From a virus (lineage: Duplodnaviria; Heunggongvirae; Uroviricota; Caudoviricetes), in IMG/VR virus record IMGVR_UViG_2703718818_000015, positions 1 through 13,111 of that record: DNA of 13,111 nt; one strand, given 5' to 3'. The position numbers and the translations under genes were made by a program. The first letter of the stretch is position 1; each line of letters opens with the position of its first letter. Positions 1 through 13,111 of the stretch are shown here, one piece after another. The notes below the pieces were generated by a model. It did not search any database, had not been told where the DNA came from, and saw only the letters and a program-made list of their open reading frames with translations.

Positions 1-1053
1 TTACGGGGTAATGCCAACCGTTGCCGCCACTTTGTCGCCACTTGGCAGCGTTGCCAGAGGATTGAAACGGAGCGCCGTTTCCAGATGATCCGGTGCCAGA
101 TGTGCGTAACGCATAGTCATTTTTATATCGTGGTGTCCGAGAATTTTTTGTAAGGCCAGAATGTTTCCACCCGACATCATGAAGTGCGCTGCAAACGTAT
201 GGCGCAGAACGTGTGTGAGTTGACCGCGAGGGAGCACGATAGACGTTTTTTCCATCACGGATAAAAATTGAAAATAGCAGTCTGTGAAGAAATTGAACCC
301 ATCGAGCGCCATGATCTCTTCGTAAAGCTCTTTACTGATAGGGATGCTTCTGTTTTTCTTCCCCTTCGTTCTGACAAAGGTAATTCGGTATTTGGTCACC
401 TGTGAGCGGGTAAGATTTACGGCTTCACGCCAGCGTGCGCCTGTGCTTAAGCATATCTTAACTACCAGTGCCAGAATTGGGTCCTGACGTTTGCAATCAG
501 CCAGCAATTCAACAATCTGCTCATGGGTAAGCCATGCCATCTCTTTTTCTGCGATGGTGAATTTTCGCATGTTCTCCAGTGGGTTCGGATACGACCATTC
601 GCCCAGACGGGATAGTTCGCTAAAAACACTACTTAGATAGCTTTGCTCCAGGTTAATGGTGACCGGGCTTGCTCCTTTCTTCCATTTCTCGCTGAAGTAG
701 ATCTCGCCTGTCAGGCGTTTATCTCGATAGTGGGCAAACATTTTAGAGGTGAGATCGGTTGCAAGAGGATTGCCCAGAGCGTCAACCATCAACAGCAATT
801 TGTCATAGACATGCTGCCCAGCTGTCAGAGATTTACCATGTAGTTTGAACCATAGTTCAACCACGTCTTTCAGTGTTCGACGATCCACTGATTCACCCAG
901 CCAGGGCTTTGCTTCGGCTTCTTCCATCGTGTGACGCTCAAAAGCCAGTGCTTCGCCTTTGGTGGCGAATTGTTTACGCACACGACGCCCACTTCGTCCG
1001 GCGGGGTAACATTCGCAAAGCCATTTCCCTGTGGTGAGTTTTCGTACTGCCAT
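1..1053 (-). CDS. int: Phage tyrosine integrase (P2/186 family), 350 aa
   Basis: 350-aa ORF with C-terminal tyrosine-recombinase pattern (...HVLRHTFAAHF...MRYAHL...). ATG at 1051-1053 is preceded on the minus strand by GGAGGG. Sits at the prophage end next to the repressor operon. Stop codon is at 1-3, so the CDS is complete. Confidence 0.9.
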   Translation of the reverse strand: MAVRKLTTGKWLCECYPAGRSGRRVRKQFATKGEALAFERHTMEEAEAKPWLGESVDRRTLKDVVELWFKLHGKSLTAGQHVYDKLLLMVDALGNPLATDLTSKMFAHYRDKRLTGEIYFSEKWKKGASPVTINLEQSYLSSVFSELSRLGEWSYPNPLENMRKFTIAEKEMAWLTHEQIVELLADCKRQDPILALVVKICLSTGARWREAVNLTRSQVTKYRITFVRTKGKKNRSIPISKELYEEIMALDGFNFFTDCYFQFLSVMEKTSIVLPRGQLTHVLRHTFAAHFMMSGGNILALQKILGHHDIKMTMRYAHLAPDHLETALRFNPLATLPSGDKVAATVGITP

Positions 1054-1058
1054 AAAAA

Positions 1059-1079
1059 ATGCCCTCCAGTGGAGAGCAT
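1059..1079 (-). promoter_or_regulatory. 21-bp imperfect palindrome/hairpin flanked by A6 and T5, overlapping the int Shine-Dalgarno; candidate terminator/attenuator or operator
   Basis: ATGCCCTCCAGTGGAGAGCAT pairs at 9 of 10 arm positions. Read on the minus strand the stem is followed by TTTTTT and then the int ATG. The GGAGGG SD lies inside the 3' arm. Confidence 0.4.
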
Positions 1080-1106
1080 TTTTACTGTATGTATAACCAG
1101 TGTCAA
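1078..1106 (-). promoter_or_regulatory. Putative sigma70 promoter for int (-35 TTGACA, 16-17 bp spacer, A/T-rich -10)
   Basis: The minus-strand reading of 1101-1106 is a perfect TTGACA. A TAAAAA/AAAAAT -10-like hexamer lies 16-17 bp downstream (plus-strand 1078-1084). Hexamer match only, no experimental support. Confidence 0.3.
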
Positions 1107-1131
1107 TGTATGATGCTTAAGGTTACATACA

Positions 1132-1503
1132 TCATAAGTACCGATATGATTGCGGGGCCGTTATGTTATCACCTAATGAACTTAGATGAAGTGGTTGGTC
1201 ATAGATTTTTAGATTACCAATTTCTATAGCAAAGGCCTTTTCTTTGCTATGAAAATATGAGTCAAAAAATTGTTTACTGATACCCGCGTATTGGCTTGTT
1301 TTTTCCCATACAATACTTGGCTTGTCTTCTATAACATCTGCAATGTCAAATTCAGCAACAACTTTACCGACAGGCATTGTTGAATAAATAACCACAGATT
1401 TTACATCCGGTTTTTTGAAAATTCCTTTTCGGAATTCAAATTTCTTTGTTCCATTAAGGATTTTTTCTACATGCTCTGGGTTAATTGACAATAATACTTT
1501 CAT
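1132..1503 (-). CDS. ASCH-domain (PUA-like fold) protein, ~123 aa; cargo gene 3
   Basis: ORF 1132-1515; likely ATG start at 1501-1503 (a TTG at 1513-1515 is the alternative). GxKxxExR signature of ASCH domains present (G-T-K-K-F-E-F-R, nt 1429-1452). Size and N-terminal KVLLSI...EKIL pattern are typical of stand-alone ASCH proteins. Start overlaps the 3' end of the upstream gene by 23 nt. Confidence 0.7.
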   Translation of the reverse strand: MKVLLSINPEHVEKILNGTKKFEFRKGIFKKPDVKSVVIYSTMPVGKVVAEFDIADVIEDKPSIVWEKTSQYAGISKQFFDSYFHSKEKAFAIEIGNLKIYDQPLHLSSLGDNITAPQSYRYL

Positions 1504-2551
1504 TGACGCCACCAAGTTTAATAATGCTATTAAACTGTTCGTTTGTTAACTTCATGATCCCCCAGTAAGCTCGCGGGGATAATCCTACTTCAGAAATAAG
1601 TTTAGCACGATTTAGTCTTTTGGGCAAAGCAAGGTTATATGTAAAGCTTATAATATATGGGTATTTTTTTGTTCTATAAAAACTTTTAAGCTCAGATTCT
1701 GTAAAAACAGAATATCTAGAACAGTAATTTAGAAATTCTTTCTCTGTAACGAAAGAGTTTATATTTCTAACTTTTTCTACTACACATAAAGAAGTAGCAA
1801 CAGAACGGTAATATGCAGGCCCTTGATTATCGGATGTTCGGTATATAACGATTATATCGTTTGGCTTCATTAATTCAACATCTGACATGCCACAAATATA
1901 TACTTTTCTAATGCTATTTGCATATGATACATCAGCAACAACGTCTGGTGACTCTGTAATTAATTTTGAGTCAGGGAATAAACGAGTATGAAATACGGGG
2001 TATATTGAAAGCAAGAATTTATTTTCACTGCCTCTGTTATTAATAAATGGATAATCTGACAGTATATCGCCCGTAAGAGCATTACTATTCATTTCTTTTA
2101 TTAGTACTCGCTCTACACCATTTTCAGATTCTTTTACTCCAATATCTATAAAGCCATAGATTTTGAATAGTCTAATTAAGTAGTCATGTTTTTCAAAAAC
2201 AGTCACATATATATTGTTAGCATTATTATCTAGAGCGTGATCGAATATTTTTTTTAAAAATCGTTGACCACGAAGAGTTCCTTTTGGATTAAATTTAAAT
2301 GTTCCAACTTTTAGATGAATACCATCAGGAATATTTGGTTTTGTATCTTCAATGATACCTACTTCTGTTTTTAGATACAAAAAACCATCAATTTTATTTT
2401 GTTCATCATAAAGGACATATGCATAATCATTTGATTTACATTTAGAATGGAACCAATCAATAAACCCATGAGCATAATCGGATTTTAAAGAGTCAAAAAA
2501 AACATCAGAAAAATCTACTTGATTAAAAGGTATGTATTTTAAGTTTTCCAT
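1481..2551 (-). CDS. Two-domain protein, 356 aa: N-terminal GNAT-like (acyl-CoA N-acyltransferase fold) region, C-terminal PUA/ASCH-like region; cargo gene 2
   Basis: ATG at 2549-2551 with AGGA ~10 nt upstream, 2 nt after the stop of the upstream gene. N-terminal ~145 aa shows GNAT-like pattern (...YVLYDEQNKIDGFLYLK... / ...NNIYVTVFEKHDYLIRLFKIYGF...). C-terminal ~170 aa has beta-rich PUA-like character (...KVYICGMSDVELMKPNDIIVIY...). Domain calls are by eye only. Confidence 0.65.
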   Translation of the reverse strand: MENLKYIPFNQVDFSDVFFDSLKSDYAHGFIDWFHSKCKSNDYAYVLYDEQNKIDGFLYLKTEVGIIEDTKPNIPDGIHLKVGTFKFNPKGTLRGQRFLKKIFDHALDNNANNIYVTVFEKHDYLIRLFKIYGFIDIGVKESENGVERVLIKEMNSNALTGDILSDYPFINNRGSENKFLLSIYPVFHTRLFPDSKLITESPDVVADVSYANSIRKVYICGMSDVELMKPNDIIVIYRTSDNQGPAYYRSVATSLCVVEKVRNINSFVTEKEFLNYCSRYSVFTESELKSFYRTKKYPYIISFTYNLALPKRLNRAKLISEVGLSPRAYWGIMKLTNEQFNSIIKLGGVNESIIVN

Positions 2552-2553
2552 GT

Positions 2554-3336
2554 TTACAATCCTATTTTAAAATCACATGATAAGCAAATTGATTTAGTTT
2601 TAGATATGACGGCGAGTGTTTTCCCCGGAGTTTGACAATTAGTACAAACATTCCAATTTTTCGGTTTTCCATCAATCTTATATATGTTGGCTAAAATATC
2701 ATCTAAAGGAAAAAATGTTTTCATCATGTCTATAATGCTTGCTGCATAGTTTTTCTTTGCCTCGGCTAATTTTTGTTCAGGCATGTTTTTATCATTTATC
2801 AAGCAATGAACCAGGTTATTAAGAGGCTCTTGATATATCTCCTCTCGAAAAATTAGAAATGCACTTAAAAAGTCTTTACGTATTTCTTTATTATTACTTT
2901 TACCTAAGTGAATTACTTTATTTCTTTCTTTGCGCAAAATATCATAAATTTCATTAAAGCGCGGTGAAAGATTTCGCCCACTGATACTTTGTGCTATTCT
3001 ATGTAGTTCGGTTGCGTCTAATGTTGAACATTCGAAAAAAGATTTGTTTTTATAGCAGTCTTTTACTTCTTTTAAAAGTAAATAAACACTATGCTCAGCA
3101 ATTATAGACTTTAGATATATTTCAGCAGAATTAAAGAGTATTACCAAGCCAGATTGAAAGAAACTCTCTTTTTCGGATATTAAGCGTTTCAGTCGTTGTT
3201 CTTCTGTTTCAGGTTGAGCTGGGGCTTGCAATAACTCAATGTCAGAATAAAAGTGTAAGTAGAATGTTTTAATGAAAAACTCAAGGTTCCTTTTGGCATA
3301 AAGAAGCATCTCTTCATTGTTAGGAAGGTCTGTCAT
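2554..3336 (-). CDS. HEPN-like protein with C-terminal C4 zinc ribbon, 260 aa; cargo gene 1 (putative RNase-type effector)
   Basis: ATG at 3334-3336 directly abuts the cI stop (3337-3339), with AAGGA 7 nt upstream. R-N-K-V-I-H (residues 138-143, nt 2908-2925) matches the HEPN Rx4-6H motif in a helical context. C-terminus has CxxC-x16-CxxC (C231, C234, C251, C254). Very AT-rich coding sequence. Confidence 0.65.
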   Translation of the reverse strand: MTDLPNNEEMLLYAKRNLEFFIKTFYLHFYSDIELLQAPAQPETEEQRLKRLISEKESFFQSGLVILFNSAEIYLKSIIAEHSVYLLLKEVKDCYKNKSFFECSTLDATELHRIAQSISGRNLSPRFNEIYDILRKERNKVIHLGKSNNKEIRKDFLSAFLIFREEIYQEPLNNLVHCLINDKNMPEQKLAEAKKNYAASIIDMMKTFFPLDDILANIYKIDGKPKNWNVCTNCQTPGKTLAVISKTKSICLSCDFKIGL

Positions 3337-4293
3337 TTAAATATCCTTATATATACCAAAACATTTTGCTATTACATTAATATCCGCTAATAGACATTCA
3401 AAAGTTGTACTTTCATTAGATACTTTTACTTTTGCAATTGGAATTCTGGTTAGATCTCTAACACTAAATTTTCCTTCGATTTCAACTAACCATTTTCCAT
3501 CGGTTACTTCATCAAATGCTTTGTCTGCAAGATATACATTTCCTTCATCTACTATAGATATGGGTTTTTTCACCTTGCTGGGTAACATGGTTTTATCAAA
3601 AGGGAGATAATTTGTATCAAACAACATACCATTTATAACTTTTTTCCGTGTGATAGCAATAATATCGCTCTTAGCGTCTTCAAAGACAGGACCATTACCG
3701 GTTGTTAGCCACATTAATGAAGCTCCGGTTTCAAGTGCGCACTGGATGATCCAATCAGCTGGAAAGGTATCTCTCATGTAACGATTGGCTAATGTGCTTT
3801 TTGAAACACCAATGTGATCCGCTAGAGCTTGCCTTGTCTTAAATCCATAGGCGATAACTATTCGCTCGATTGCCGCTTTTCCTCCTTGATTAACCTCAAT
3901 GAGGCTCTCGTTCTTTCGGTGAGTATTGTTCTCATTTGGGGATTTTGTGTCTAAAGTGAGAGAATGAATCTCCTTACCATCTTTATGGTGGTTCTGTTCT
4001 GTATTATGTGTGACAGCCTCTACTGTGTTATCGGTACCAAATGCCAACCATTCAACCGACACGCCAGTTTCCATGCTGCAGATTATGACCCAGTCGGCAG
4101 GGAAGGTATCACGAGCATATCTGTTCGCCATTGTGCTTTGGGATATCCCTAAGTGGTTACAGAATGCTTGACGTGAAGTGAAGCCATAAGCTTTCAAAAT
4201 TCGGTCAATGACCTGTTGTCCTCCACGATTCTGCATGATTACAGTTTTCATTGCATCATCAACATGGCGAAATGTGATTTTGTGTGTTGACAT
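3337..4293 (-). CDS. cI: Phage 186-type CI immunity repressor with duplicated N-terminal HTH domain, 318 aa
   Basis: Residues ~141-318 resemble 186 CI (HTH N-domain then oligomerisation C-domain). Residues 28-87 are an internal repeat of residues 141-200, roughly 60% identical by eye (both contain ...AYGF..RQA...G.S.ST.ANRY.RDTFPADW.I.C..ETG...WL). ATG at 4291-4293. Divergent from apl. Confidence 0.8.
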   Translation of the reverse strand: MSTHKITFRHVDDAMKTVIMQNRGGQQVIDRILKAYGFTSRQAFCNHLGISQSTMANRYARDTFPADWVIICSMETGVSVEWLAFGTDNTVEAVTHNTEQNHHKDGKEIHSLTLDTKSPNENNTHRKNESLIEVNQGGKAAIERIVIAYGFKTRQALADHIGVSKSTLANRYMRDTFPADWIIQCALETGASLMWLTTGNGPVFEDAKSDIIAITRKKVINGMLFDTNYLPFDKTMLPSKVKKPISIVDEGNVYLADKAFDEVTDGKWLVEIEGKFSVRDLTRIPIAKVKVSNESTTFECLLADINVIAKCFGIYKDI

Positions 4294-4381
4294 ATCCGTT
4301 TTGCGATCCTATTCTCCGATTTGTGAAGTTGAAGTCACGATTAAAACCTGCTTATCACAAGACAATAGGAGATGTTGCATC
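4294..4381. promoter_or_regulatory. cI/apl divergent switch region (expected location of lytic/lysogenic promoters and operators)
   Basis: 88-bp gap between divergent cI and apl start codons. Contains apl SD AGGAG (4366-4370) and a tandem GAAGTT/GAAGTC repeat (4325-4336). Promoter hexamers could not be assigned confidently. Confidence 0.4.
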
Positions 4382-4603
4382 ATGACCCCTAACATTTCAA
4401 TAACTCTGAATACGCCACACGTCACAATTGAGCGTTATAGCGAACTTACTGGTCTTTCGATCGACACAATCAACGATATGCTGGCTGATGGTCGCATCCC
4501 TCGGCATCGTCTCCGTAAAGACAAGAAAAGAGAAAAGGTAATGATCAACCTTGCTGCTCTTACCGTTGATGCACTGACTGATTGCAATGTTGTATTCAAC
4601 TAG
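4382..4603 (+). CDS. apl: Apl/Cox-like excisionase and transcriptional regulator, 73 aa
   Basis: ATG at 4382 with AGGAG 11 nt upstream. HTH-like segment ([25 protein letters not shown]). Sits between cI and cII as in phage 186. The longer ORF 4208-4603 has its 5' extension antisense inside cI and is rejected. Confidence 0.65.
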
Positions 4604-4635
4604 TTCCATTTTGAGATACATCAGGGATGTCGACT

Positions 4636-5145
4636 ATGTTTGATTACCAAGTTTCCAAACATCCACATTTTGATGAAGCCTGTCGTGCATTCGCATTGCG
4701 CCACAACCTGGTGCAACTGGCAGAACGTGCAGGCATGAATGTGCAGATTCTGCGGAACAAGCTGAACCCAGCTCAACCTCATTTATTAACCGCACCAGAA
4801 ATCTGGCTGCTTACCGATCTGACTGAAGATTCAACGCTGATAGATGGTTTTCTGGCACAGATTCACTGCCTGCCATGTGTACCGATTAATGAGGTAGCAA
4901 AAGAGAAACTGCCGCATTACGTCATGAGTGCAACCGCAGAGATCGGGCGTGTTGCTGCAGGTGCGGTATCTGGCGATGTAAAAACCAGTGCAGGTCGTCG
5001 TGATGCTATCAGCAGCATTAACTCTGTAACACGACTGATGGCGCTGGCTGCTGTTTCATTGCAGGCCCGTTTACAGGCTAACCCTGCGATGGCGAGTGCA
5101 GTTGATACCGTGACTGGCCTCGGCGCCTCATTCGGTTTGCTGTGA
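4636..5145 (+). CDS. cII: Phage 186 CII-type lysogeny establishment regulator, 169 aa
   Basis: Strong resemblance to remembered 186 CII ([21 protein letters not shown]...[17 protein letters not shown]...[27 protein letters not shown]...). ATG at 4636 with AGGGA 8 nt upstream; an in-frame ATG at 4627 is the alternative. Confidence 0.85.
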
Positions 5146-5152
5146 GGTACTT

Positions 5153-5449
5153 ATGCTGACGAAAGAACCATCATTTGCATCGCTGCTGGTAAAGCAAAGC
5201 CCGGCAATGCACTACGGTCACGGCTGGATCATGGGTGAGGATGGAAAACGCTGGCATCCATGTCATTCACAAGATGAATTGCTGTCTCAATTGACCACGA
5301 GGAAACGGAGAAAGTCAAAATGTATGCAGCGGAAAGTGAAGTGGTTTATCAGTTTCGTTACAGAGGGGAGAGTTATTCAGTACCTGAAGATGATTTGCTC
5401 TGTTGTTATCCGTCGTTGTCGGGCGATGGCAGTTACTTTTTCACGCTAA
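5153..5449 (+). CDS. Hypothetical early protein (98-aa ORF; C-terminal third overlaps the next ORF in another frame)
   Basis: ATG at 5153 with GAGG 5 nt upstream, immediately after the cII stop. The N-terminal ~55 aa look protein-like; the C-terminal part overlaps ORF 5320-5544. Confidence 0.4.
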   Translation: MLTKEPSFASLLVKQSPAMHYGHGWIMGEDGKRWHPCHSQDELLSQLTTRKRRKSKCMQRKVKWFISFVTEGRVIQYLKMICSVVIRRCRAMAVTFSR

Positions 5450-5544
5450 AAGATGGGACGTTTTTACGGGGAGAGCAGGTTAAAGAGACGATACGAAAAA
5501 ATGTATCTCCTCTTGAACGTTACCGTAATAACAAACAACGATAG
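5320..5544 (+). CDS. Hypothetical small early protein, 74 aa
   Basis: ATG at 5320 with GGAGAAAG upstream. Protein-like composition. Overlaps the 3' part of ORF 5153-5449 in a different frame. Confidence 0.45.
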   Translation: MYAAESEVVYQFRYRGESYSVPEDDLLCCYPSLSGDGSYFFTLKDGTFLRGEQVKETIRKNVSPLERYRNNKQR

Positions 5545-5566
5545 TTGCGTTTTGGGGATATGAATT

Positions 5567-5908
5567 ATGGCAATTAATGGCGCTGCGGCGACTGTTCCAT
5601 TAAGCCCCGGTGAACGCCTGAATGGACTTAATCACATTGCGGAGCTAAGGGCGAAAGTTTTTGGCCTGAATATTGAGTCAGAGCTTGAGCGGTTTATTAA
5701 AGATATGCGTGATCCACGGGATATCAATAATGAACAAAATAAACGGGCACTGGCTGCCATATTCTTTATGGCAAAAATTCCAGCTGAACGTCATAGCATC
5801 AGCATTAATGAGCTGACCACTGACGAAAAGCGGGAGCTGATTAAAGCAATGAATCATTTTCGTGCAGTGGTGAGCTTATTTCCCAGACGGCTAACCATGC
5901 CGAATTAA
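5567..5908 (+). CDS. Hypothetical phage early protein, 113 aa
   Basis: ATG at 5567 with GGGGA 7 nt upstream. Co-directional with the early operon. No motif recognised. Confidence 0.55.
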   Translation: MAINGAAATVPLSPGERLNGLNHIAELRAKVFGLNIESELERFIKDMRDPRDINNEQNKRALAAIFFMAKIPAERHSISINELTTDEKRELIKAMNHFRAVVSLFPRRLTMPN

Positions 5909-5975
5909 CCAACTAATGAAATTAATGGCGTAAACCCGCCGGGCATCCCTTTATCTAAATTCAGGAGAATTGATT

Positions 5976-6209
5976 ATGCGTAATATTGAAACCCTCACGA
6001 CTAAAACCGGACCGGATGACGCAGGGCTTAATATTTTACTGACAGAGGCTCGTCTGGAAGAACGCCGGGCAAGGGCTGAAGCAATGGCAGCTCGCCTTGA
6101 TAGCCTGGCGTGTCATATCTCATCCCGTCAGCTAAACCACGTGGAAGCGGCAGAACTGCTGCGTGTGACTGCTGAAGCAATCCAGAACGAAGCGCAGGAG
6201 ATCCACTAA
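5976..6209 (+). CDS. Hypothetical small helical protein, 77 aa
   Basis: ATG at 5976 with AGGAG 8 nt upstream (ORF-track start 5970 is a TTG). Stop TAA overlaps the next start (TAATG). Confidence 0.55.
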   Translation: MRNIETLTTKTGPDDAGLNILLTEARLEERRARAEAMAARLDSLACHISSRQLNHVEAAELLRVTAEAIQNEAQEIH

Positions 6210-6436
6210 TGGCTGATGCAATGGATCTCGTACAGCAGCGCGTTGAAGAAGAACGCCAGCGCCATATCCGTGCTGCCCGTGCCAAAACGCCGGGCGTGTC
6301 CCGCGTGCTTTGCGTTGAGTGTGAAGCGCCAATTCCGCCAGCACGCCGCCGTGCCATTCCGGGTGTGCAGCTTTGCATTACCTGTCAGGAAATCGCAGAG
6401 CTGAAAGGTAAACATTACAACGGAGGTGCTGTATGA
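6209..6436 (+). CDS. TraR/DksA-family C4 zinc-finger protein, 75 aa
   Basis: C-x2-C-x17-C-x2-C (C35, C38, C56, C59), the spacing characteristic of DksA/TraR zinc fingers. AGGAG 8 nt upstream. Stop overlaps the dam start (ATGA). Confidence 0.75.
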   Translation: MADAMDLVQQRVEEERQRHIRAARAKTPGVSRVLCVECEAPIPPARRRAIPGVQLCITCQEIAELKGKHYNGGAV

Positions 6437-7290
6437 GCACCATCCTGAAATGGGCGGGAAATAAAACCGCCGTAATGTCCGAACTGAAAAAACATCTTCC
6501 TGCTGGTCCGCGACTAGTTGAACCTTTCGCGGGTTCCTGTGCTGTGATGATGGAGACGGATTATCCCTGCTATCTGGTTGCGGATATTAATCCTGATTTA
6601 ATCAACCTCTATAAAAAGGTTGCCGCTGATTGTGAATCGTTTATATCTCGCGCCAAAGTTTTATTTGAGATCGCAAACAGGGAGGTGGCTTATTACAACA
6701 TAAGGCAGGAGTTTAATTACTCAACTGAAATTACTGATTTCATGAAAGCGGTATATTTCCTGTATCTCAATCGTCACGGTTACCGTGGGTTATGTCGCTA
6801 TAACAAGAGCGGGCATTTCAACATTCCCTACGGTAATTATAAAAATCCGTATTTCCCTGAAAAAGAAATTCGCGCTTTTGCAGAAAAAGCCCAGCGAGCA
6901 ACGTTTATCTGCGCCAGCTTTGATGAAACGCTGGCGATGTTGAAGGCGGGGGATGTGGTGTATTGCGATCCGCCTTATGACGGTACGTTTTCCGGCTATC
7001 ACGCTGACGGCTTTACTGAAGATGACCAGTATCACCTGGCATCCGTTCTTGAACATCGGTCATCAGAAGGACATCCGGTCATTGTTTCTAACAGTGACAC
7101 ATCCCTGATCCGTTCGCTGTATCGCAATTTTACTCACCACTATATCAAGGTAAAACGCAGCATCGGCGTAGCAGCTGGTGAGAGTAAATCAGCAACAGAA
7201 ATCATTGCTGTTTCCGGGCCGCGCTGCTGGGTGGGATTTGATTATTCGCGTGGCGTGGATAGTTCTGCCGTGTACGGAGTACGTGCATGA
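6433..7290 (+). CDS. dam: Dam-family DNA adenine (N6) methyltransferase, GATC-type, 285 aa
   Basis: Close resemblance to E. coli Dam over the whole length (LKWAGNK SAM motif, LVEPF.G, ADIN.DLI.LY, FLYLNR.GY.GLCRYN, catalytic DPPY). GGAGG SD 7 nt upstream. Confidence 0.9.
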
Positions 7291-8333
7291 GCCATGCCGA
7301 TATGAGCAACTGCTGCGGCTTTAACGAGGCTGCCGCATCGTTCTCATGGAACAGCCCGAAAAAGGCCATTAACCCTTATCTGGACCCGGCGGAAGTTGCG
7401 CCGGTTTCTGCGCTTTCAAACCTGATCACTCTGTACGCTGCCGATAACGAGCAGGAACAACTGCGCCGCGAGGCACTGAGTGATCAGGTCTGGGAGCGTT
7501 ATTTCTTTAATGAATCCCGTGATCCTGTCCAACGCGAAATAGAGCAGGATAAGCTCATTAGCCGGGCAAAGTTGGCGCATGAGCAGCAGCGTTTTAACCC
7601 GGACATGGTCATTCTGGCAGACGTCAGCGCCCAGCCCTCCCATATCAGCAAGCCGCTGATGCAACGTATTGAATACTTCAGCAGCCTGGGCAGGCCAAAG
7701 GCTTATTCCCGCTATTTACGTGAGACGATTAAGCCATGTCTGGAACGACTGGAGCATGTACGCGACAGCCAGCTATCTGCATCTTTTCGTTTTATGGCAA
7801 GCCATGTAGGGCTGGACGGCCTGCTGATTCTGCCTGAAATGAGTCAGGATCAGGTGAAACGCCTGTCTACCCTTGTCGCTGCGCATATGAGCATGTGCCT
7901 TGATGCAGCTTGTGGTGATTTGTATGCCACCGATGACGTTAAGCCGGAAGAAATCCGCAAGACATGGGAAAAGGTGGCAGCGGAAACCCTGCGTCTGGAT
8001 GTCATCCCGCCTGCGTTTGAGCAACTCCGTCGGAAAAGAAACCGCCGTAAACCCGTGCCCTATGAACTCATTCCGGGTTCGCTGGCGCGTATGTTGTGCG
8101 CCGACTGGTGGTACCGGAAATTATGGAAAATGCGTTGCGAATGGCGGGAAGAGCAGTTGCGTGCTGTCTGCCTGGTCAGCAAAAAAGCATCTCCCTATGT
8201 CAGCTATGAAGCCGTGATGCATAAACGTGAGCAGCGCCGCAAGTCACTGGAGTTTTTCCGTTCTCATGAACTGGTGAACGAAGAGGGCGACACGCTGGAT
8301 ATGGAAGACGTGGTATCAGTGCAGCGCGGGTGA
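7287..8333 (+). pseudogene. A: Replication initiation gene A, N-terminal ~348-aa fragment (3' half deleted)
   Basis: Position after dam, as the replication gene in P2/186. C-terminal region resembles the remembered P2 gpA mid-region (...WWY.KL......W.E..L.AV..V.K..SPY.S..A....R.....LEF...). Full-length gpA is roughly twice this size, and the ORF is followed 46 nt later by tail gene U. Confidence 0.6.
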
Positions 8334-8379
8334 AGGCAAAAGCCAGGAGTAACTACAGCGATCAGGGGGGATACGACGC

Positions 8380-8850
8380 ATGATGATGGTGCTGGGATTG
8401 TACGTGGTGCCGTATCAGGAGCTGCAGTATCAACGCAGCTGGCGACATGCGGCAAACAGCCGGGTAAACCGACGTCCGTCCACGCAGTTTCTGGGACCGG
8501 ACAACGACATGCTGACGCTTTCCGGTGTTCTTATGCCGGAGATAACAGGTGGCAGGCTGTCGTTGCTGGCACTGGAGCAGATGGCAGAACAGGGGAAAGC
8601 ATGGCCCCTGATTGAAGGCAGCGGCACGATTTATGGCATGTATGTGATTGAGGGACTGAATCAGACTAAAACGGAGTTTTTCCGCGACGGTATGCCGCGC
8701 CGGATTGAGTTCACCCTGTCGCTCAAACGGGTGGATGAATCCCTGTCCGATATGTTCGGTGATCTCAGTGCGCAGCTGAATAATCTGCAGGGAACGGCAA
8801 CATCTGCCTTAAGCGATATCAGTAAAACGGTGGGAGGGCTTCTGTCGTGA
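8380..8850 (+). CDS. U: P2-type tail protein U, 156 aa
   Basis: Resembles remembered P2 gpU (MML.LG...; ...LSGVL.PE.TGG.L...L....AE.G.AWPL..G.G.IYGMYVI...F...G.PR.I.FTLSL.RVDESL). Stop overlaps the start of D (GTGA). Confidence 0.85.
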   Translation: MMMVLGLYVVPYQELQYQRSWRHAANSRVNRRPSTQFLGPDNDMLTLSGVLMPEITGGRLSLLALEQMAEQGKAWPLIEGSGTIYGMYVIEGLNQTKTEFFRDGMPRRIEFTLSLKRVDESLSDMFGDLSAQLNNLQGTATSALSDISKTVGGLLS

Positions 8851-9947
8851 ATTTCAGCTCTGAACTGCTTAACAAAGGCAACAAAACTCCGGCATTCAGC
8901 ATCAGTATTGAAGGCAGGGATATCACCACTGTGCTGGACAACCGCCTGATGGGGCTTACGCTGACGGATAACCGGGGCTTTGAAGCGGACCAGCTTGATC
9001 TGGAGCTGGACGACGCTGACGGAAAAATCGTGCTGCCGCGCCGTGGTGCGGTCATTACGCTGGCGCTGGGCTGGAAGGGGCAGCCGCTTTTCCCGAAAGG
9101 GGCATTCACGGTGGACGAGATTGAACACACTGGCGCACCGGACCGCCTGACTATCCGGGCGCGAAGTGCTGATTTTCGGGAAACGCTGAATACCCGCCGT
9201 GAAAAGTCGTGGCACAAGACCACGGTCGGGGAAGTGGTGAAGGAAATAGCCGCGCGGCACAAACTGAAGATGGCACTGGGTAAAGACTTGTCGGATAAAC
9301 CCGTGGAGCATATAGACCAGACCAATGAGAGTGACGCCAGTTTTTTGATGCGGCTGGCGCGCCAGTACGGTGCTATTGCGTCGGTGAAAAATGGCAATCT
9401 GTTATTCATCCGACAGGGACAGGGTAAAAGTGCCAGCGGTAAACCACTGCCGGTGATCACTATCACACGTAAGGACGGCGACAGTCACCGCTTTACCTTG
9501 GCAGATCGCGGAGCCTATACGGGCGTAATTGCCAGTTGGTTGCATACCCGCGAACCCGCGAAGAAAGAAAGCACAACGGTGAAGCGTAAGCGCAGGACTA
9601 AGAATCAGAAGAAAGAGCCGGAAGCGAAGCAGGGCGATTACCTGGTGGGTACGGATGAAAACGTGCTGGTACTTAATCGCACTTATGCCAACCGGAGCAA
9701 CGCTGAACGGGCAGCGAAAATGCAGTGGGAACGCCTGCAACGCGGCGTTGCGTCATTCTCGCTACAACTGGCGGAAGGGCGGGCAGATCTCTACACGGAA
9801 ATGCCTGTGAAGGTCAGTGGCTTTAAACAGCCGATAGATGATGCGGAATGGACCATTACGACTCTGACGCATACCGTCAGCCCGGATAATGGTTTTACGA
9901 CCAGTCTGGAGCTTGAAGTGAGGATTGATGATTTCGAAATGGAATGA
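8847..9947 (+). CDS. D: P2-type tail protein D, 366 aa
   Basis: Resembles remembered P2 gpD (TPAF.....G.DIT..L..RLM.LT.TDNRGFEADQLD.EL.DADG...LP.RGAV...). GTG start at 8847 with GGGAGGG ~10 nt upstream. Immediately precedes ogr as in P2. Confidence 0.85.
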   Translation: MNFSSELLNKGNKTPAFSISIEGRDITTVLDNRLMGLTLTDNRGFEADQLDLELDDADGKIVLPRRGAVITLALGWKGQPLFPKGAFTVDEIEHTGAPDRLTIRARSADFRETLNTRREKSWHKTTVGEVVKEIAARHKLKMALGKDLSDKPVEHIDQTNESDASFLMRLARQYGAIASVKNGNLLFIRQGQGKSASGKPLPVITITRKDGDSHRFTLADRGAYTGVIASWLHTREPAKKESTTVKRKRRTKNQKKEPEAKQGDYLVGTDENVLVLNRTYANRSNAERAAKMQWERLQRGVASFSLQLAEGRADLYTEMPVKVSGFKQPIDDAEWTITTLTHTVSPDNGFTTSLELEVRIDDFEME

Positions 9948-10037
9948 TTCTTCGCAATGGAGAACTTTTAAGTTTGCAAAATGGAATAATGCGGTATCAT
10001 TATTGTGAATTTAGCAAAAATGGGGAGAACTCGAAAA

Positions 10038-10256
10038 ATGATGATTTGCCCACTGTGTGGAAGTGCCGCCCATACTCGCAGCAGTTTTCAGGTATCTTCA
10101 TTGACCAAAGAGCGTTACAACCAGTGCCAGAATATTAACTGCAGCCATACTTTTGTAACCCATGAAACTTTTGTTCGTTCGATTGCAACGCCAAAAGAGT
10201 CAAATCCGGTTCAGCCGCATCCAATGAAATCAGGACAGGTGGCGCTCTCTCTTTGA
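10038..10256 (+). CDS. ogr: Ogr/Delta-family zinc-finger late-gene activator, 72 aa
   Basis: CPLC...C.N.NC zinc-finger arrangement and length matching P2 Ogr (72 aa). ATG at 10038 with GGGGAG 10 nt upstream. The longer ORF-track start (10005) is a GTG and is rejected. Confidence 0.85.
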   Translation: MMICPLCGSAAHTRSSFQVSSLTKERYNQCQNINCSHTFVTHETFVRSIATPKESNPVQPHPMKSGQVALSL

Positions 10257-10336
10257 CGCTGCCGCCATTTTGTCGCCATCGTTAAAAAACAGTGCTTCTA
10301 ACGTCATGATTTTAAAAGGCATAAACTTCAGGCAAC

Positions 10337-10379
10337 AAAAAACCCATCAACCTTGAACCGAAATGGCGGGGTTGATGGG
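10337..10379 (-). terminator. Rho-independent terminator, minus-strand sense; probable ybjL terminator
   Basis: 10-bp perfect inverted repeat CCCATCAACC (10343-10352) / GGTTGATGGG (10370-10379). On the minus strand the stem is followed by TTTTTT (complement of 10337-10342). Lies 113 nt downstream of the ybjL stop. Confidence 0.5.
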
Positions 10380-10491
10380 CTCCACAAAATGGGGACATCA
10401 AAGAAAAGCAGTGGCACTAATTAAGACTGATGCCCTGCGGAAAAGTTCTGCGGTTGTGCAAAAAAATTTCATTTTCAGGGCAACTTCAGTT

Positions 10492-12177
10492 TTATCCTAA
10501 TCCTGGCCATACCATGACGATGATTGTCCCTGCCAGCGTCAGCAGGACGTTGGCGATTGCATAGGTGCCCGCATAGCCCAGCGCCGGGATGTTACTGCGA
10601 GCTGTATCACTGATGATCTCCATTGCCGGCGCGCAGGTACGTGCGCCCATCATTGCGCCGAACAACAGCGCGCGGTTCATTCGCAATACATAAGCACCGA
10701 ACAAGAAACAGATAACCACGGGCACCAGACTGACAATCAATCCGGCAATCAACATCTGACCGCCAATCGCGCCCAGGCCGTTATTAATACCGCTACCGGC
10801 GCTCAGACCAACGCCTGCCATAAACACCATCAAGCCGAACTCTTTCACCATGCTTAATGCACCCTGCGGAATGTAACCGAAGGTCGGGTGGTTAGCACGC
10901 ATAAAGCCCAGCATAATTCCGGCGAATAACAACCCGGCAGCGTTCCCCATGCCGAAACTGAATGTGCTGAACTGGAAGGTGATCATCCCGATCATCAGCC
11001 CAATAACAAAGAAGGCGCAGAATGCCAGCAGGTCAGTGACCTGGCTGTGAATCGAGATAAAGCCGATGCGATCGGCGATGGTTTTTACGCGGCGGGCATC
11101 GCCGCTGACTTGTAAAACGTCACCTTTGTTAAGCACGACGTTGTCATCTATCGGCATCTCAATCTGGCTACGAATGACGCGGTTAAGGAAGCAACCGTGA
11201 TCGGTCAACTTCAGTTGTGCGAGACGTTTACCTACAGCGTTATGGTTTTTAACGACCACTTCTTCAGTGACGATACGCATGTCGAGAAGGTCACGATCGA
11301 AAACTTCTTTACCGTTACGGAAGCTGGGATCGAGTCGGGCATGGGCGTCGGGATAGCCTACCAACGCTATTTCATCGCCCATTTGTAGCACGGCATCACC
11401 GTCTGGATTTGCCAGAATCCCGTTACGTCGAATACGTTCAATGTAGCAGCCGGTTTGTCGATAAATACCCAGTTCACGCAGATTTTTGCCGTCGGTCCAG
11501 GCCACCAGTTCCGGGCCGACGCGATAGGCGCGGATCACCGGTAAATAAACCTTACGGTTGGCATCAGTGTCCAGGCCACGTTCGCGGGCGATTTGCTGGG
11601 CGCTGGTCTGTAAGTCCTGATGCTGCAATTTCGGCAAGTAACGCGCACCAACAATCAAACTCACCAGACCGATTAAATAGGTTAAGGCATACCCGAGGCT
11701 CAGATTATCCAGTGCCAGTGAGAGCTGCCTGCTTTCCATGCCGGAATGACGCAGTGTATCGCCAGCACCGACCAGAACCGGTGTCGACGTCATAGAGCCT
11801 GCTAACATACCGGCCGTCAGGCCAATATCCCAGCCAAACAGCTTACCTAACCCTAAGGCGATCACCAGCGCACTGCCAACCATCACCAGTGCTAACATTA
11901 GGTAATTTTTCCCATCGCGAAAAAAAATGGAAAAAAAGTTCGGTCCGGCTTCGACCCCGACGCAGAAAATAAACAGCATAAAGCCAAGATTAAGCGCATC
12001 GGTGTTAATGCTGAAATGTTGTTGGCCTAATAACAGCGATACGACTAAAACGCCAATGGAATTACCCAGTTGGATCGAACCAAGTCGTAACTTTCCGAGA
12101 CATAGCCCAAGCGCGAGGACCACAAATAATAACAGAATGTAATTCCCATTTAACAATTCGGCGACGTTTATATTCAC
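10492..12177 (-). CDS. ybjL: Putative AAE-family transporter YbjL (membrane protein with two TrkA-C/RCK_C-like domains), 561 aa
   Basis: Recognised as E. coli YbjL ([18 protein letters not shown]...). GTG start at 12175-12177. Hydrophobic N- and C-terminal halves flank a soluble central region. Confidence 0.95.
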
Positions 12178-12446
12178 GGAGGCTAACTTCTTGTTTACTA
12201 GTAAGCTGTTGAAAGAAATGGTAATTTACGATAATGTTTTTTACCAGAATTCAGGGCGCAGATTCATTCAGCGCACCTAAACGATAGTAAAGCAACAATA
12301 TATTTTACTAGTGTAATCACATTAGGTATCAACGGCTATATGAATTGCGTTGGCCTATATTAGCATGGAATGCGAAGCGGCTTTATCTTACTGAACGCCA
12401 CACTGGCGAAAAATGTGTTCGATAGACGCAGTGTCAGGAGGAACGA

Positions 12447-12824
12447 GTGAAACATAAACAACGTTGGGCGGGGGCAATCTGCTGTTTTGTCCTCTTCATT
12501 GTGGTGTGCCTTTTTCTGGCGACGCACATGAAAGGCGCTTTTCGGGCTGCCGGGCATCCTGAAATCGGCTTGCTATTTTTCATTCTTCCTGGAGCAGTCG
12601 CCAGCTTCTTTTCACAGCGTAGAGAAGTCCTGAAACCTCTGTTTGGCGCAATGCTGGCGGCACCCTGTTCGATGCTCATTATGCGGCTGTTTTTTTCACC
12701 GACGCGCTCATTCTGGCAAGAGCTGGCATGGTTACTAAGCGCGGTGTTCTGGTGTGCGCTGGGGGCACTGTGTTTCTTATTTATCAGTAGTTTGTTTAAA
12801 CCACAGCACAGAAAAAATCAGTAA
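12447..12824 (+). CDS. ybjM: Inner membrane protein YbjM, 125 aa
   Basis: Recognised as E. coli YbjM (MKHKQRWAGAICCFVLFIVV...). GTG start with AGGAGG 6 nt upstream. Strongly hydrophobic. Confidence 0.9.
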   Translation: MKHKQRWAGAICCFVLFIVVCLFLATHMKGAFRAAGHPEIGLLFFILPGAVASFFSQRREVLKPLFGAMLAAPCSMLIMRLFFSPTRSFWQELAWLLSAVFWCALGALCFLFISSLFKPQHRKNQ

Positions 12825-12843
12825 AGCCCTCAACGCGAGGGCT
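12825..12843. terminator. Bidirectional intrinsic terminator between convergent ybjM and grxA
   Basis: Perfect 7-bp stem AGCCCTC / GAGGGCT with 5-nt loop, directly after the ybjM stop. On the minus strand the stem is followed by TTTACTG. Confidence 0.6.
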
Positions 12844-12853
12844 TGTCAGACGA

Positions 12854-13111
12854 TCAGGCGTCCAGATTTTCTTTCACCCATGCAGCAAAATCGGTATAGC
12901 CGCCGATATGTTGCTGATCGACAAAAATCTGCGGCACGGTTTCTACGGGTTTACCTGCCTTTTGTTGTAGATCTTCTTTAGTGATCCCTTCCGCACGAAT
13001 ATCTACATACTGATACTGAAAATCATCGCGTTCATTGCTCAATTTCTCAGCCAGATCTTTTGCACGCACACAGTAAGGGCAACCCGAACGACCAAAAATA
13101 ACGGTTTGCAT
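12854..13111 (-). CDS. grxA: Glutaredoxin 1, 85 aa
   Basis: Recognised as E. coli GrxA with CPYC active site (MQTVIFGRSGCPYCVRAKDLAEKL...). The start codon is the last three bases of the window, so the CDS is complete. Confidence 0.95.
   Translation of the reverse strand: MQTVIFGRSGCPYCVRAKDLAEKLSNERDDFQYQYVDIRAEGITKEDLQQKAGKPVETVPQIFVDQQHIGGYTDFAAWVKENLDA

Follow-up and report, generated by a model that had tools for sequence, protein, structure and literature searches.

We analyzed a 13.1-kb stretch of DNA (the window: positions 1 to 13,111 of IMG/VR virus record IMGVR_UViG_2703718818_000015, at its full length of 13,111 nt) that holds the left-hand portion of an E. coli prophage of the 186-like type (Peduoviridae), and our subject is a cassette of three cargo genes that lies between the repressor gene cI and the integrase gene int. 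The minus strand carries int (1053-1), the three cargo genes and cI (4293 or 4236 to 3337); the plus strand carries an apl/cox-like gene, cII, fil and further early genes, a Dam methylase gene and the start of replication gene A. The cassette occupies the position at which cI of coliphage 186 overlaps int. We read this locus, with a probability of about 60%, as a lysogeny module in which the cassette is read from the cI transcript and int is autonomous. The genes concerned, in order of leftward transcription, are:

3337-4293, minus strand: cI repressor, 318 amino acids (aa) if it starts at the ATG at 4293, 299 aa if at that of 4236 (the PGAP start)
2554-3336, minus strand: cargo gene 1, 260 aa, a HEPN-fold protein with a C-terminal four-cysteine zinc ribbon
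1481-2551, minus strand: cargo gene 2, 356 aa, PDC-M11A, with an N-terminal GNAT fold and a conserved beta-rich C-terminal domain of ~190 aa
1132-1503, minus strand: cargo gene 3, 123 aa, an ASCH-domain protein, PDC-M11B
1-1053, minus strand: int, a P2/186-family tyrosine integrase of 350 aa, an open reading frame (ORF) called phage integrase in relatives

The cassette and its junctions

The initial annotation of this DNA described near-zero spacing along the leftward genes, and each junction is as it was described. The cI stop (TAA, 3339-3337) abuts the ATG of gene 1 (3336-3334; TAAATG on the minus strand), the stop of the 260-aa ORF (2556-2554) is separated by 2 nt from the next ATG (2551-2549), and the 356-aa ORF, with its stop at 1483-1481, overlaps gene 3 (ATG 1503-1501) by 23 nt; for gene 3 the ORF listing extends to a TTG at 1515, and PGAP and the homologues use the ATG. 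Likewise, purine runs resembling Shine-Dalgarno (SD) sequences lie inside the preceding genes as had been claimed: AAGGA 8 nt before the first ATG, AGGA 8 nt before the second, and GGTGG 5 nt before the third. In all, cI and int are 2283 nt apart, a distance taken up by the three genes and by a 78-nt spacer with a hairpin and a T-run. The junction between cI and gene 1 is too short to hold a promoter, cI and cargo share one strand, and a consensus terminator scan of the minus strand from 4293 to 1132 returned no terminator-like site. The only strong internal promoter-like match in the cI-cargo unit, TTGAAT-16-TATAAT at 1878-1851, was considered as a promoter for the ASCH gene and rejected, as five homologous cassettes do not conserve it.

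Is the tight packing a sign of embedding in the repressor operon, as the initial annotation took it to be? For the cI/gene 1 junction this argument stands; the tightness of the cargo-internal junctions is a property of the cassette itself, because the same junctions are found in other genera and behind other cI genes. Hafnia alvei has cI, the cassette and int in that order; Photobacterium swingsii has cI and then the first two cassette genes; Dickeya zeae has a truncated cI remnant and then the cassette, without int. Since the order 260-357-123 and the junctions (a 1-2 nt gap and a 23-nt overlap) are the same in the three contexts that were opened (Hafnia, Photobacterium and Dickeya), the three genes are, by this comparison, one conserved module. 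Close packing as such is commonplace in operons; the two cassette-internal junctions, however, are kept in five genera. Behind the cI stop, the gap to the cassette measures 0-13 nt in each of the four contexts. The 23-nt overlap of genes 2 and 3 (ATGAAAGTATTATTGTCAATTAA; window 1481-1503, loci L015, L017, L086 and L087) has near-identical nucleotides in five genera, with proteins 67-88% identical; to judge from its sequence, it is a dual-coding stretch under double constraint.

Related arrangements were met beside this module. In Raoultella and Scandinavium, the PDC-M11 A/B pair sits in the cI-int slot behind a different, unrelated gene of 357-379 aa. In Photobacterium (L084:7889-10129), the strand opposite to the cI-268-354 genes holds, after them, an ASCH gene, a separate 185-aa GNAT gene and a 405-aa gene, which may be a rearranged or second related system. 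A distant PDC-M11 A/B pair (45% and 51% identity; L083:694-2092) lies ~7 kb from int in a 186-type prophage region with abutting cI and int, so that the pair is not confined to the cI-int slot. The block from 1100 to 3700, comprising the cargo and the cI C-terminal domain, has a G+C content of 27-35%, compared with 42-52% in int and the remaining switch, and homology with Klebsiella phages breaks inside cI at about 3679. From this low-GC block, the cI C-terminal domain could be imagined to travel with the cassette; the idea found no support, as the domains beside the same cassette are only 40-56% identical and are variable everywhere.

What might the cargo proteins do? Gene 1 was identified solely by a fold search and a conserved motif; sequence searches with the 260-aa protein in Pfam, NCBIfam, PHROGs and the PDB gave nothing significant. 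The fold is a four-helix HEPN fold with its best structural matches among the HEPN toxins of HEPN-MNT toxin-antitoxin pairs, and its Rx4H motif, R138-N-K-V-I-H143 (R138-N-x3-H143), is invariant in 20 aligned sequences down to 36% identity, with the four zinc-ribbon cysteines kept in all 20 homologues. Gene 1 is a predicted HEPN ribonuclease. The gene 1 family is small (24 clusters vs >2,600 for gene 2), and its members share contigs with gene 2 homologues. Gene 2 matches PADLOC PDC-M11A over its full length (E = 2e-130) and has a GNAT acetyltransferase fold with an acetyl-CoA-binding core; gene 3 matches PDC-M11B, also over its full length (E = 5e-48), and scores 25.2 bits against the Pfam ASCH family, for which the cut-off is 21.2. 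The closest solved relative of gene 3 is the Zymomonas ASCH protein 5GUS (profile match, E = 1e-14), which is reported to be a single-strand-specific RNase; another ASCH protein, E. coli YqfB, hydrolyses N4-acetylcytidine. The structure models of the cargo proteins are confident, and across five genera the proteins are conserved to 35-54% identity with invariant catalytic-type residues.

By these identities the cargo is a candidate anti-phage cassette, the PDC-M11 part of which PADLOC lists as a candidate system, and its action would most likely be that of an RNA-directed abortive-infection or toxin-antitoxin-like module. With a HEPN RNase, an acetyltransferase and an ASCH partner side by side, one enzyme may control or reverse another. 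Literature searches for PDC-M11, and for ASCH with GNAT in defense, turned up no prior description; two papers in the full-text search name PDC-M11, and no functional study of it is known to us.

The cI-int slot and the leader of int

We surveyed 77 loci encoding relatives of the window integrase, taking one genome per species and locating cI, cII and int in each. In the 186-type lineage, with an int ~54% identical to that of the window, the distance from the cI stop to the int start is 1-10 nt in 16 loci (1-3 nt in 15 of the 16). In the window lineage, 25 loci (the window included) have both cargo and the int module described below, and there the interval spans 395-3286 nt. Across these 25 loci the slot holds ~14 different gene sets, among which we recognized SNIPE/PD-lambda-1, PDC-S20, PDC-M18, HEC-01 and PDC-M11, together with several unknowns. 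PD-lambda-1 occupies the slot in seven species and in Escherichia phage vB_EcoM-813R9; under its present name, SNIPE, it is an experimentally characterized membrane nuclease that cuts phage DNA during injection (PMC13190303). The cargo is co-oriented with cI in 24 of the 25 loci. Its first gene follows the cI stop by <=30 nt in 26 of 31 related loci, and between the end of its last gene and int there is a near-constant distance of 71-115 nt. The only reverse cargo in the 25 loci is found in Citrobacter pasteurii (L014:7845-8705), where SNIPE is followed by a 286-aa ORF on the opposite strand.

With conserved flanks around varying cargo that includes known defense systems, the cI-int junction is, on this comparative evidence, a prophage defense hotspot. 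Cargo and int module go together: where the module is present and cI could be located, cargo is found in 25 of 25 loci, and of the loci without the module 16 of 24 have none, counts that are descriptive as the loci are related. The slot probably exists because int has a promoter of its own, as the makeup of its leader suggests. The elements of this leader are:

1106-1132, minus strand: CII-type inverted repeat ATGTATG-N13-CATACAT with 0 mismatches, sharing its first base with the end of the cargo stop codon and abutting the -35
1078-1106, minus strand: candidate int promoter, with -35 TTGACA at 1106-1101, a LexA-type box CACTGGTTATACATACAGTA at 1102-1083 and a -10-like AAAAAT at 1083-1078
1054-1083, minus strand: hairpin and T-run, with the RNA 5' arm at 1082-1071, the loop at 1070-1068, the 3' arm at 1067-1056 and the T-run reaching the int ATG

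An alignment of the ~80 nt upstream of int finds this module shared by the window, phages with other cargo, and the no-cargo phage ESSI2_ev040. The CII-type pattern occurs twice in the window (1106-1132 and 4636-4662; 0.01 expected); the CII-binding site of 186 pE is annotated as ATGTTTG-N13-CAAACAT, at record positions 23435-23462. In 1.33 Mb of related loci, 41 copies of the motif lie at pE, 27 before int (<=1 mismatch) and 9 elsewhere, and a site with <=2/14 mismatches is present in 37 of 40 int leaders vs 1 of 4000 random positions.

The putative promoter scores 10/12 in the promoter scan and has the LexA-type box between its -35 and -10 hexamers. In 40 of 71 loci a CTG-N10-CAG core keeps a fixed distance to the int ATG, with box scores of 15-27 bits. 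The box of the window matches 16/20 consensus positions and scores 23.8 bits, where known sites have a median of 20.8; the window has no other strong site. In the cI-int region of 186, the LexA position weight matrix (PWM) finds no site. As a positive control, in the intact relative of this prophage the PWM picks out only one other place, tandem boxes before a tum/DinI-like gene. These tandem boxes (24.1 and 17.5 bits; L001:20795-20829, also L086:694) lie directly upstream of a small ORF and a DinI-like gene and occupy the position of the 186 tum antirepressor, so that the prophage family has exactly two SOS-box locations, the tum-like one and int; tum is the SOS-controlled antirepressor that one expects. 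TTGACA and the AAAT that directly follows the LexA box are more conserved than binding by LexA would require, and they are 17 nt apart. Two independent estimates place the start site near 1071, in the hairpin loop: one from the 17-nt TTGACA-AAAAAT spacing and one from the 35 nt between the right CII half-site and the end of the 186 pE feature.

The hairpin with a T-run that the initial annotation placed between cassette and int is present as described; it belongs to the conserved int module and not to the cassette. A reading of it as a cassette-borne terminator was rejected, as it accompanies unrelated cargos and is found even where cargo is missing. As an inverted repeat it has arms of 14 nt (1055-1068 and 1070-1083) that are 93% complementary; ATTTTTT follows, then the int ATG at 1053, and the SD sequence of int, GGAGG, lies inside the 3' arm. 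A 96-nt RNA that contains it (1040-1135) folds at -27.3 kcal/mol (z = -3.6 vs dinucleotide shuffles), and the leader by itself, taken from the LexA box as far as the int ATG, at -14.9 kcal/mol (z = -7.4 vs mononucleotide shuffles). The consensus terminator scan missed the hairpin, whose A-run and T-run pair and are absorbed into the stem. With a core stem, UGCUCUCC/GGAGGGCA, that is lengthened by A-U pairs and runs into a U6 tract, the hairpin of the window lineage resembles an intrinsic terminator. The structure is present in 30 of 33 distinct leaders (z < -2), which comprise at least 8 unrelated stem sequences, and the 3' arm always carries the SD. Because at least 8 unrelated stem sequences still fold, the pairing is, as far as predicted folds go, maintained by changes on both sides of the stem. 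The T-run is confined to the closer lineages; in some distant ones, a canonical terminator distinct from the hairpin immediately precedes the module.

Taken together, these elements suggest that int is activated by CII, derepressed in the SOS response and insulated from the cI-cargo transcript. The least secure part of this proposal is the predicted start inside the hairpin, by which int mRNA would lack the 5' arm. Literature searches for LexA or CII control of P2-like int genes, and for a module of CII site, LexA box and hairpin before int, found no description, and the promoter logic of int appears to be undescribed so far.

The switch region and the prophage remnant

The remaining features of the lysogeny region lie to the right of the cassette:

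4382-4603, plus strand: apl/cox-like gene, the first gene of the rightward lytic operon, called Cox or hypothetical protein in relatives
4627-5145, plus strand: cII, after the apl/cox-like gene; Pfam Phage_CP76, E = 4e-42
4287-4315, plus strand: candidate pR, TTGACA-17-TATTCT, facing apl, 10/12 in the promoter scan, at a position analogous to 186 pR
4372-4400, minus strand: weak candidate pL, TTGAAA-17-CAACAT, overlapping the apl start as in 186, of low confidence
4636-4662, minus strand: candidate pE, a 186-CII-type inverted repeat ATGTTTG-N13-CAAACAT within the 5' end of cII

A repressor gene of the Phage_CI_repr/Phage_CI_C family that diverges from an apl/cox-cII operon is the gene order of the annotated 186 record. 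The protein has two tandem N-terminal helix-turn-helix (HTH) domains (Phage_CI_repr, E = 1e-57 in two stretches), ~60% identical to each other, and one C-terminal domain (Phage_CI_C, E = 7e-31). Its start is uncertain: PGAP prefers the ATG at 4236, and the ATG at 4293 touches the predicted -35 of pR. The repressor of phage 186 has a single HTH domain vs the two found here; tandem-HTH cI is also found in Klebsiella phage 4LV2017 (L002) and in L022 and L028, and arose independently in a Pectobacterium/Brenneria lineage (L039, L043, L044, L046 and L047). The candidate pL falls below the threshold of the promoter scan and was picked by analogy to the geometry of 186 pL. For the candidate pE, the motif is exact and the position equals that of the annotated CII site of 186 pE, and 41 related loci carry a CII site there; by analogy with 186, leftward transcription of cI and the cargo during establishment would start from it.

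The prophage of the window is a deleted, defective copy, since it has a deletion from gene A into the tail genes that is absent from an intact relative, the prophage of E. coli WP5-W18-ESBL-11 (L001). Identity with this relative is 97.7%, and the two are collinear only up to 8315; beyond that point the window jumps to tail genes U and D and then ogr. The deletion (about 8315-8380) cuts gene A after ~345 codons and fuses it to the end of the tail genes, and its junction has 0 matches among 5,426 complete E. coli genomes. In other words, the 'lysogen' here is one with a cryptic remnant, in which int, the cassette, cI, apl and cII are all intact despite the deletion. Among the same 5,426 genomes, 1,101 match part of the query and 28 carry the cassette at 99.5% identity. 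Past the prophage end come the host genes for the RybB small RNA (sRNA), ybjL and grxA. The RybB sRNA gene (10334-10412, minus strand; Rfam, 105 bits) lies ~80 nt past the prophage end at ogr, and the attachment site is probably at or beside rybB. Within 1-5200, an Rfam scan found no known RNA family. A DNA adenine methylase gene (6433-7290, plus strand) stands between a TraR/DksA-like gene and replication gene A; its position in the early operon may be another variable slot, phage 186 having a different non-essential gene there.

Interpretation and comparison with known systems

How would such a locus work? Transcripts from pL (maintenance) and from CII-activated pE (establishment) would run through cI into the HEPN, GNAT-fusion and ASCH genes, and with translation coupled at every junction, the cassette would be made whenever repressor is made. 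These cI-cargo transcripts would end at the hairpin, or be silenced translationally by it, as it hides the ribosome-binding site of int. The integrase gene would be driven by its own compact promoter and not by the cI transcript: the CII operator would turn int on at establishment, for integration, and the LexA operator at SOS induction. For excision, LexA cleavage would derepress int, which would act with Apl after a tum-type antirepressor has inactivated CI. Transcripts of int would start within the hairpin, without its 5' arm, and would thereby escape both termination and occlusion. Because int would be autonomous, the cI-int junction could take interchangeable cargo and become a hotspot for defense genes.

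Co-transcription of the cargo with cI from pL/pE, which the initial annotation predicted, is well supported by architecture and by comparison (the junctions, the clean terminator scan, the position of pL/pE in 186, the co-orientation and the presence of SNIPE in the slot); the hairpin, which it set between the cassette and int, is assigned to the int module. That the cassette would be constitutive in lysogens follows as an inference from the same architecture. More tentatively, and at somewhat less than even odds, we propose that in one large lineage of enterobacterial 186-like phages a module of ~78 bp, consisting of a CII operator, a near-consensus -35, a LexA operator and a hairpin that is terminator and SD occluder in one, is what freed int from the repressor operon: it would block read-through, confer a 'CII OR SOS' logic and provide a neutral landing pad, with a cargo that would be a so far undescribed three-component RNA-targeting system (HEPN RNase, GNAT writer and ASCH partner).

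Several points weigh against these proposals. The promoter scan and the 186 analogy do not place pL convincingly, the -10 of the best candidate matching at 3/6 positions. The LexA PWM derives from a list of 20 SOS boxes of E. coli, and the related loci are phylogenetically linked, so that their counts are of non-independent events. RNAalifold on a MAFFT alignment of the int leaders gives 0 pairs, the stems being out of register, and the evidence for covariation therefore consists of per-sequence folds. A start ~10 nt further upstream would put the hairpin into int's own mRNA. PDC-M11 is a candidate system only. The cargo, at 27-35% G+C, is hence rich in promoter-like hexamers and a possible H-NS target, and the Dickeya cassette is intact even though the cI fragment before it is without N-terminus and pL; therefore the cassette can persist, perhaps be expressed, without the repressor promoter.

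These last two points lead to an alternative that we consider unlikely, in which the cassette is autonomous, with a promoter of its own in the 3' part of cI or within the cassette, and its position is merely where recombination can insert it. The three intact Dickeya ORFs behind a truncated cI without N-terminal domain and switch region would fit such a unit, as would the many promoter-like matches of AT-rich DNA (19 found vs 15.6 expected) and the fact that SNIPE, from the same slot in relatives, was studied on a plasmid under what its authors call its 'native promoter' (PMC13190303). Against it stand the 0-13 nt spacing behind cI in the four cassette contexts and the co-orientation in 24 of 25 loci, which an autonomous unit would not require, and a conserved promoter-like element was not found in the cassettes, where the best internal match is not conserved. 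Somewhat more credible, and still doubtful, is the idea that the hairpin is a leader attenuator or translational damper on all int transcripts rather than an insulator against read-through, with int remaining partly dependent on upstream transcription. If the CII half-sites flank the -35 region, an arrangement that may hold at 186 pE, transcription would begin near 1082 and take in the entire hairpin; additionally, in lineages that lack the T-run the retained hairpin does no more than occlude the SD, and some of them have the separate terminator upstream of the module. Set against this, a 12-bp stem and U6 tract right before the ATG would largely kill expression from int's own promoter, the conserved TTGACA and AAAT with their 17-nt spacing put the start in the hairpin loop, and the annotated 186 pE feature likewise has 35 nt from half-site to +1.

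A different kind of question concerns the cargo: is it directed against phages at all? It could be a toxin-antitoxin or addiction module that stabilizes the prophage, with a HEPN or GNAT toxin and an ASCH antidote, or a host-physiology 'moron'. We regard this as rather improbable, despite the HEPN toxins among the best structural matches of gene 1, the precedent of GNAT toxins such as TacT and AtaT, the overlapping and coupled genes that are typical of toxin-antitoxin operons, and the retention of the cassette in a defective prophage remnant. PADLOC lists the PDC-M11 A/B pair as a defense candidate through its association with defense islands, the cI-int slot of relatives holds validated or candidate defense systems, and toxin-antitoxin and abortive-infection functions are compatible with each other. 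Finally, the tight junctions could be an artifact of annotation or chance, and the cargo ORFs decaying and unexpressed in a dead prophage; the window prophage is, after all, deleted from inside gene A to the tail genes. This we consider highly improbable, as the cassette is 97.7% identical in the intact prophage, is present in the 28 complete E. coli genomes, encodes proteins that are conserved with their catalytic-type residues across five genera, and yields confident structure models.

The part worth an experiment is the link of a dual-input, autonomous int promoter to a repressor-driven hotspot, which amounts to a testable rule: the slot behind the repressor opens for defense genes that are 'always on' in the lysogen only when int has its own promoter. 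The leader would also be a compact natural two-input promoter (activator and LexA) with a built-in insulator. We nominate the HEPN-GNAT-ASCH cassette, carried by 28 of 5,426 complete E. coli genomes and by several other genera, for anti-phage testing, and the presence of SNIPE in a repressor-linked slot predicts that its native expression is tied to prophage immunity.

Defense genes in a repressor transcript are a classical theme, exemplified by lambda rexAB, and the cargo in this operon is a new example of a known arrangement that specialists would expect. The analogy to rexAB drawn in the initial annotation is apt, architecture and comparative evidence agreeing: as in lambda cI-rexA-rexB (pRM/pRE), exclusion or defense genes come right behind the repressor in the lysogenic transcript, whereby every lysogen makes them, with a CII boost at establishment. 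Unlike in lambda, the proteins are unrelated to RexAB and the repressor and CII families are those of 186 (Phage_CI_repr, Phage_CP76); the lambda int is far off at the other prophage end, whereas the window int is next to the cargo; and lambda rexB has an extra internal promoter, whereas none is conserved in the window cassette. A partial likeness to lambda pI and sib is seen in the dedicated int promoter, the establishment activator and a fate of int mRNA that depends on the promoter, one transcript having the complete hairpin. Here, however, the activator and its site are unrelated, a LexA operator is added and the hairpin is upstream of int, the window side of this comparison being drawn from sequence alone.

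Among P2-related phages, the slot itself has precedents. Vibrio phage K139 carries glo between cI and int. For Vibrio K139-like P2-related phages, the cI-int hotspot has been reported with variable known and candidate defense systems (Rousset et al. 2022, PMC9122126); that report covers Vibrionaceae by manual inspection, whereas the slot of the window is one of enterobacterial 186-like phages, and what we contribute is the anatomy of the junctions, the proposed connection with an int promoter that is autonomous, and cargo of other kinds. Similarly, the P2/P4 hotspots (gpA-gpQ, Z/fun and psu-int; Rousset 2022; de Sousa et al. 2026, PMC13586616) hold interchangeable defense cargo amid conserved phage genes, and 8% of P2 defense systems lie between int (integrase) and gpA (primase) (de Sousa et al. 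2026, PMC13586616). The P2/P4 hotspot papers leave the cI-int junction, the embedding in an operon and the regulation of int aside, and in the main P2 hotspots the cargo stands in either orientation with its own promoters, in contrast to the co-oriented cargo of the cI-int slot. With respect to the cargo, PDC-M11 as defined by PADLOC has two genes, to which the window cassette adds a conserved HEPN-zinc-ribbon third partner; and although gene 1 shares its toxin fold and Rx4H motif with HEPN-MNT toxin-antitoxin systems, the cassette has no MNT nucleotidyltransferase.

The closest comparison is with coliphage 186 itself (pL/pE, cI, int, orf69), which shares with the window the gene families, their order, the face-to-face switch and the CII site inside cII. 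In the 186-like prophage BTP5, the repressor and integrase genes are transcribed in all conditions (PMC7067206). In coliphage 186, cI and int overlap by 1 nt in the pL/pE operon, which holds no cargo. The int gene of the window, which is separated from cI, has a CII site, a LexA-type box and a hairpin before it, all of which the int gene of 186 lacks.

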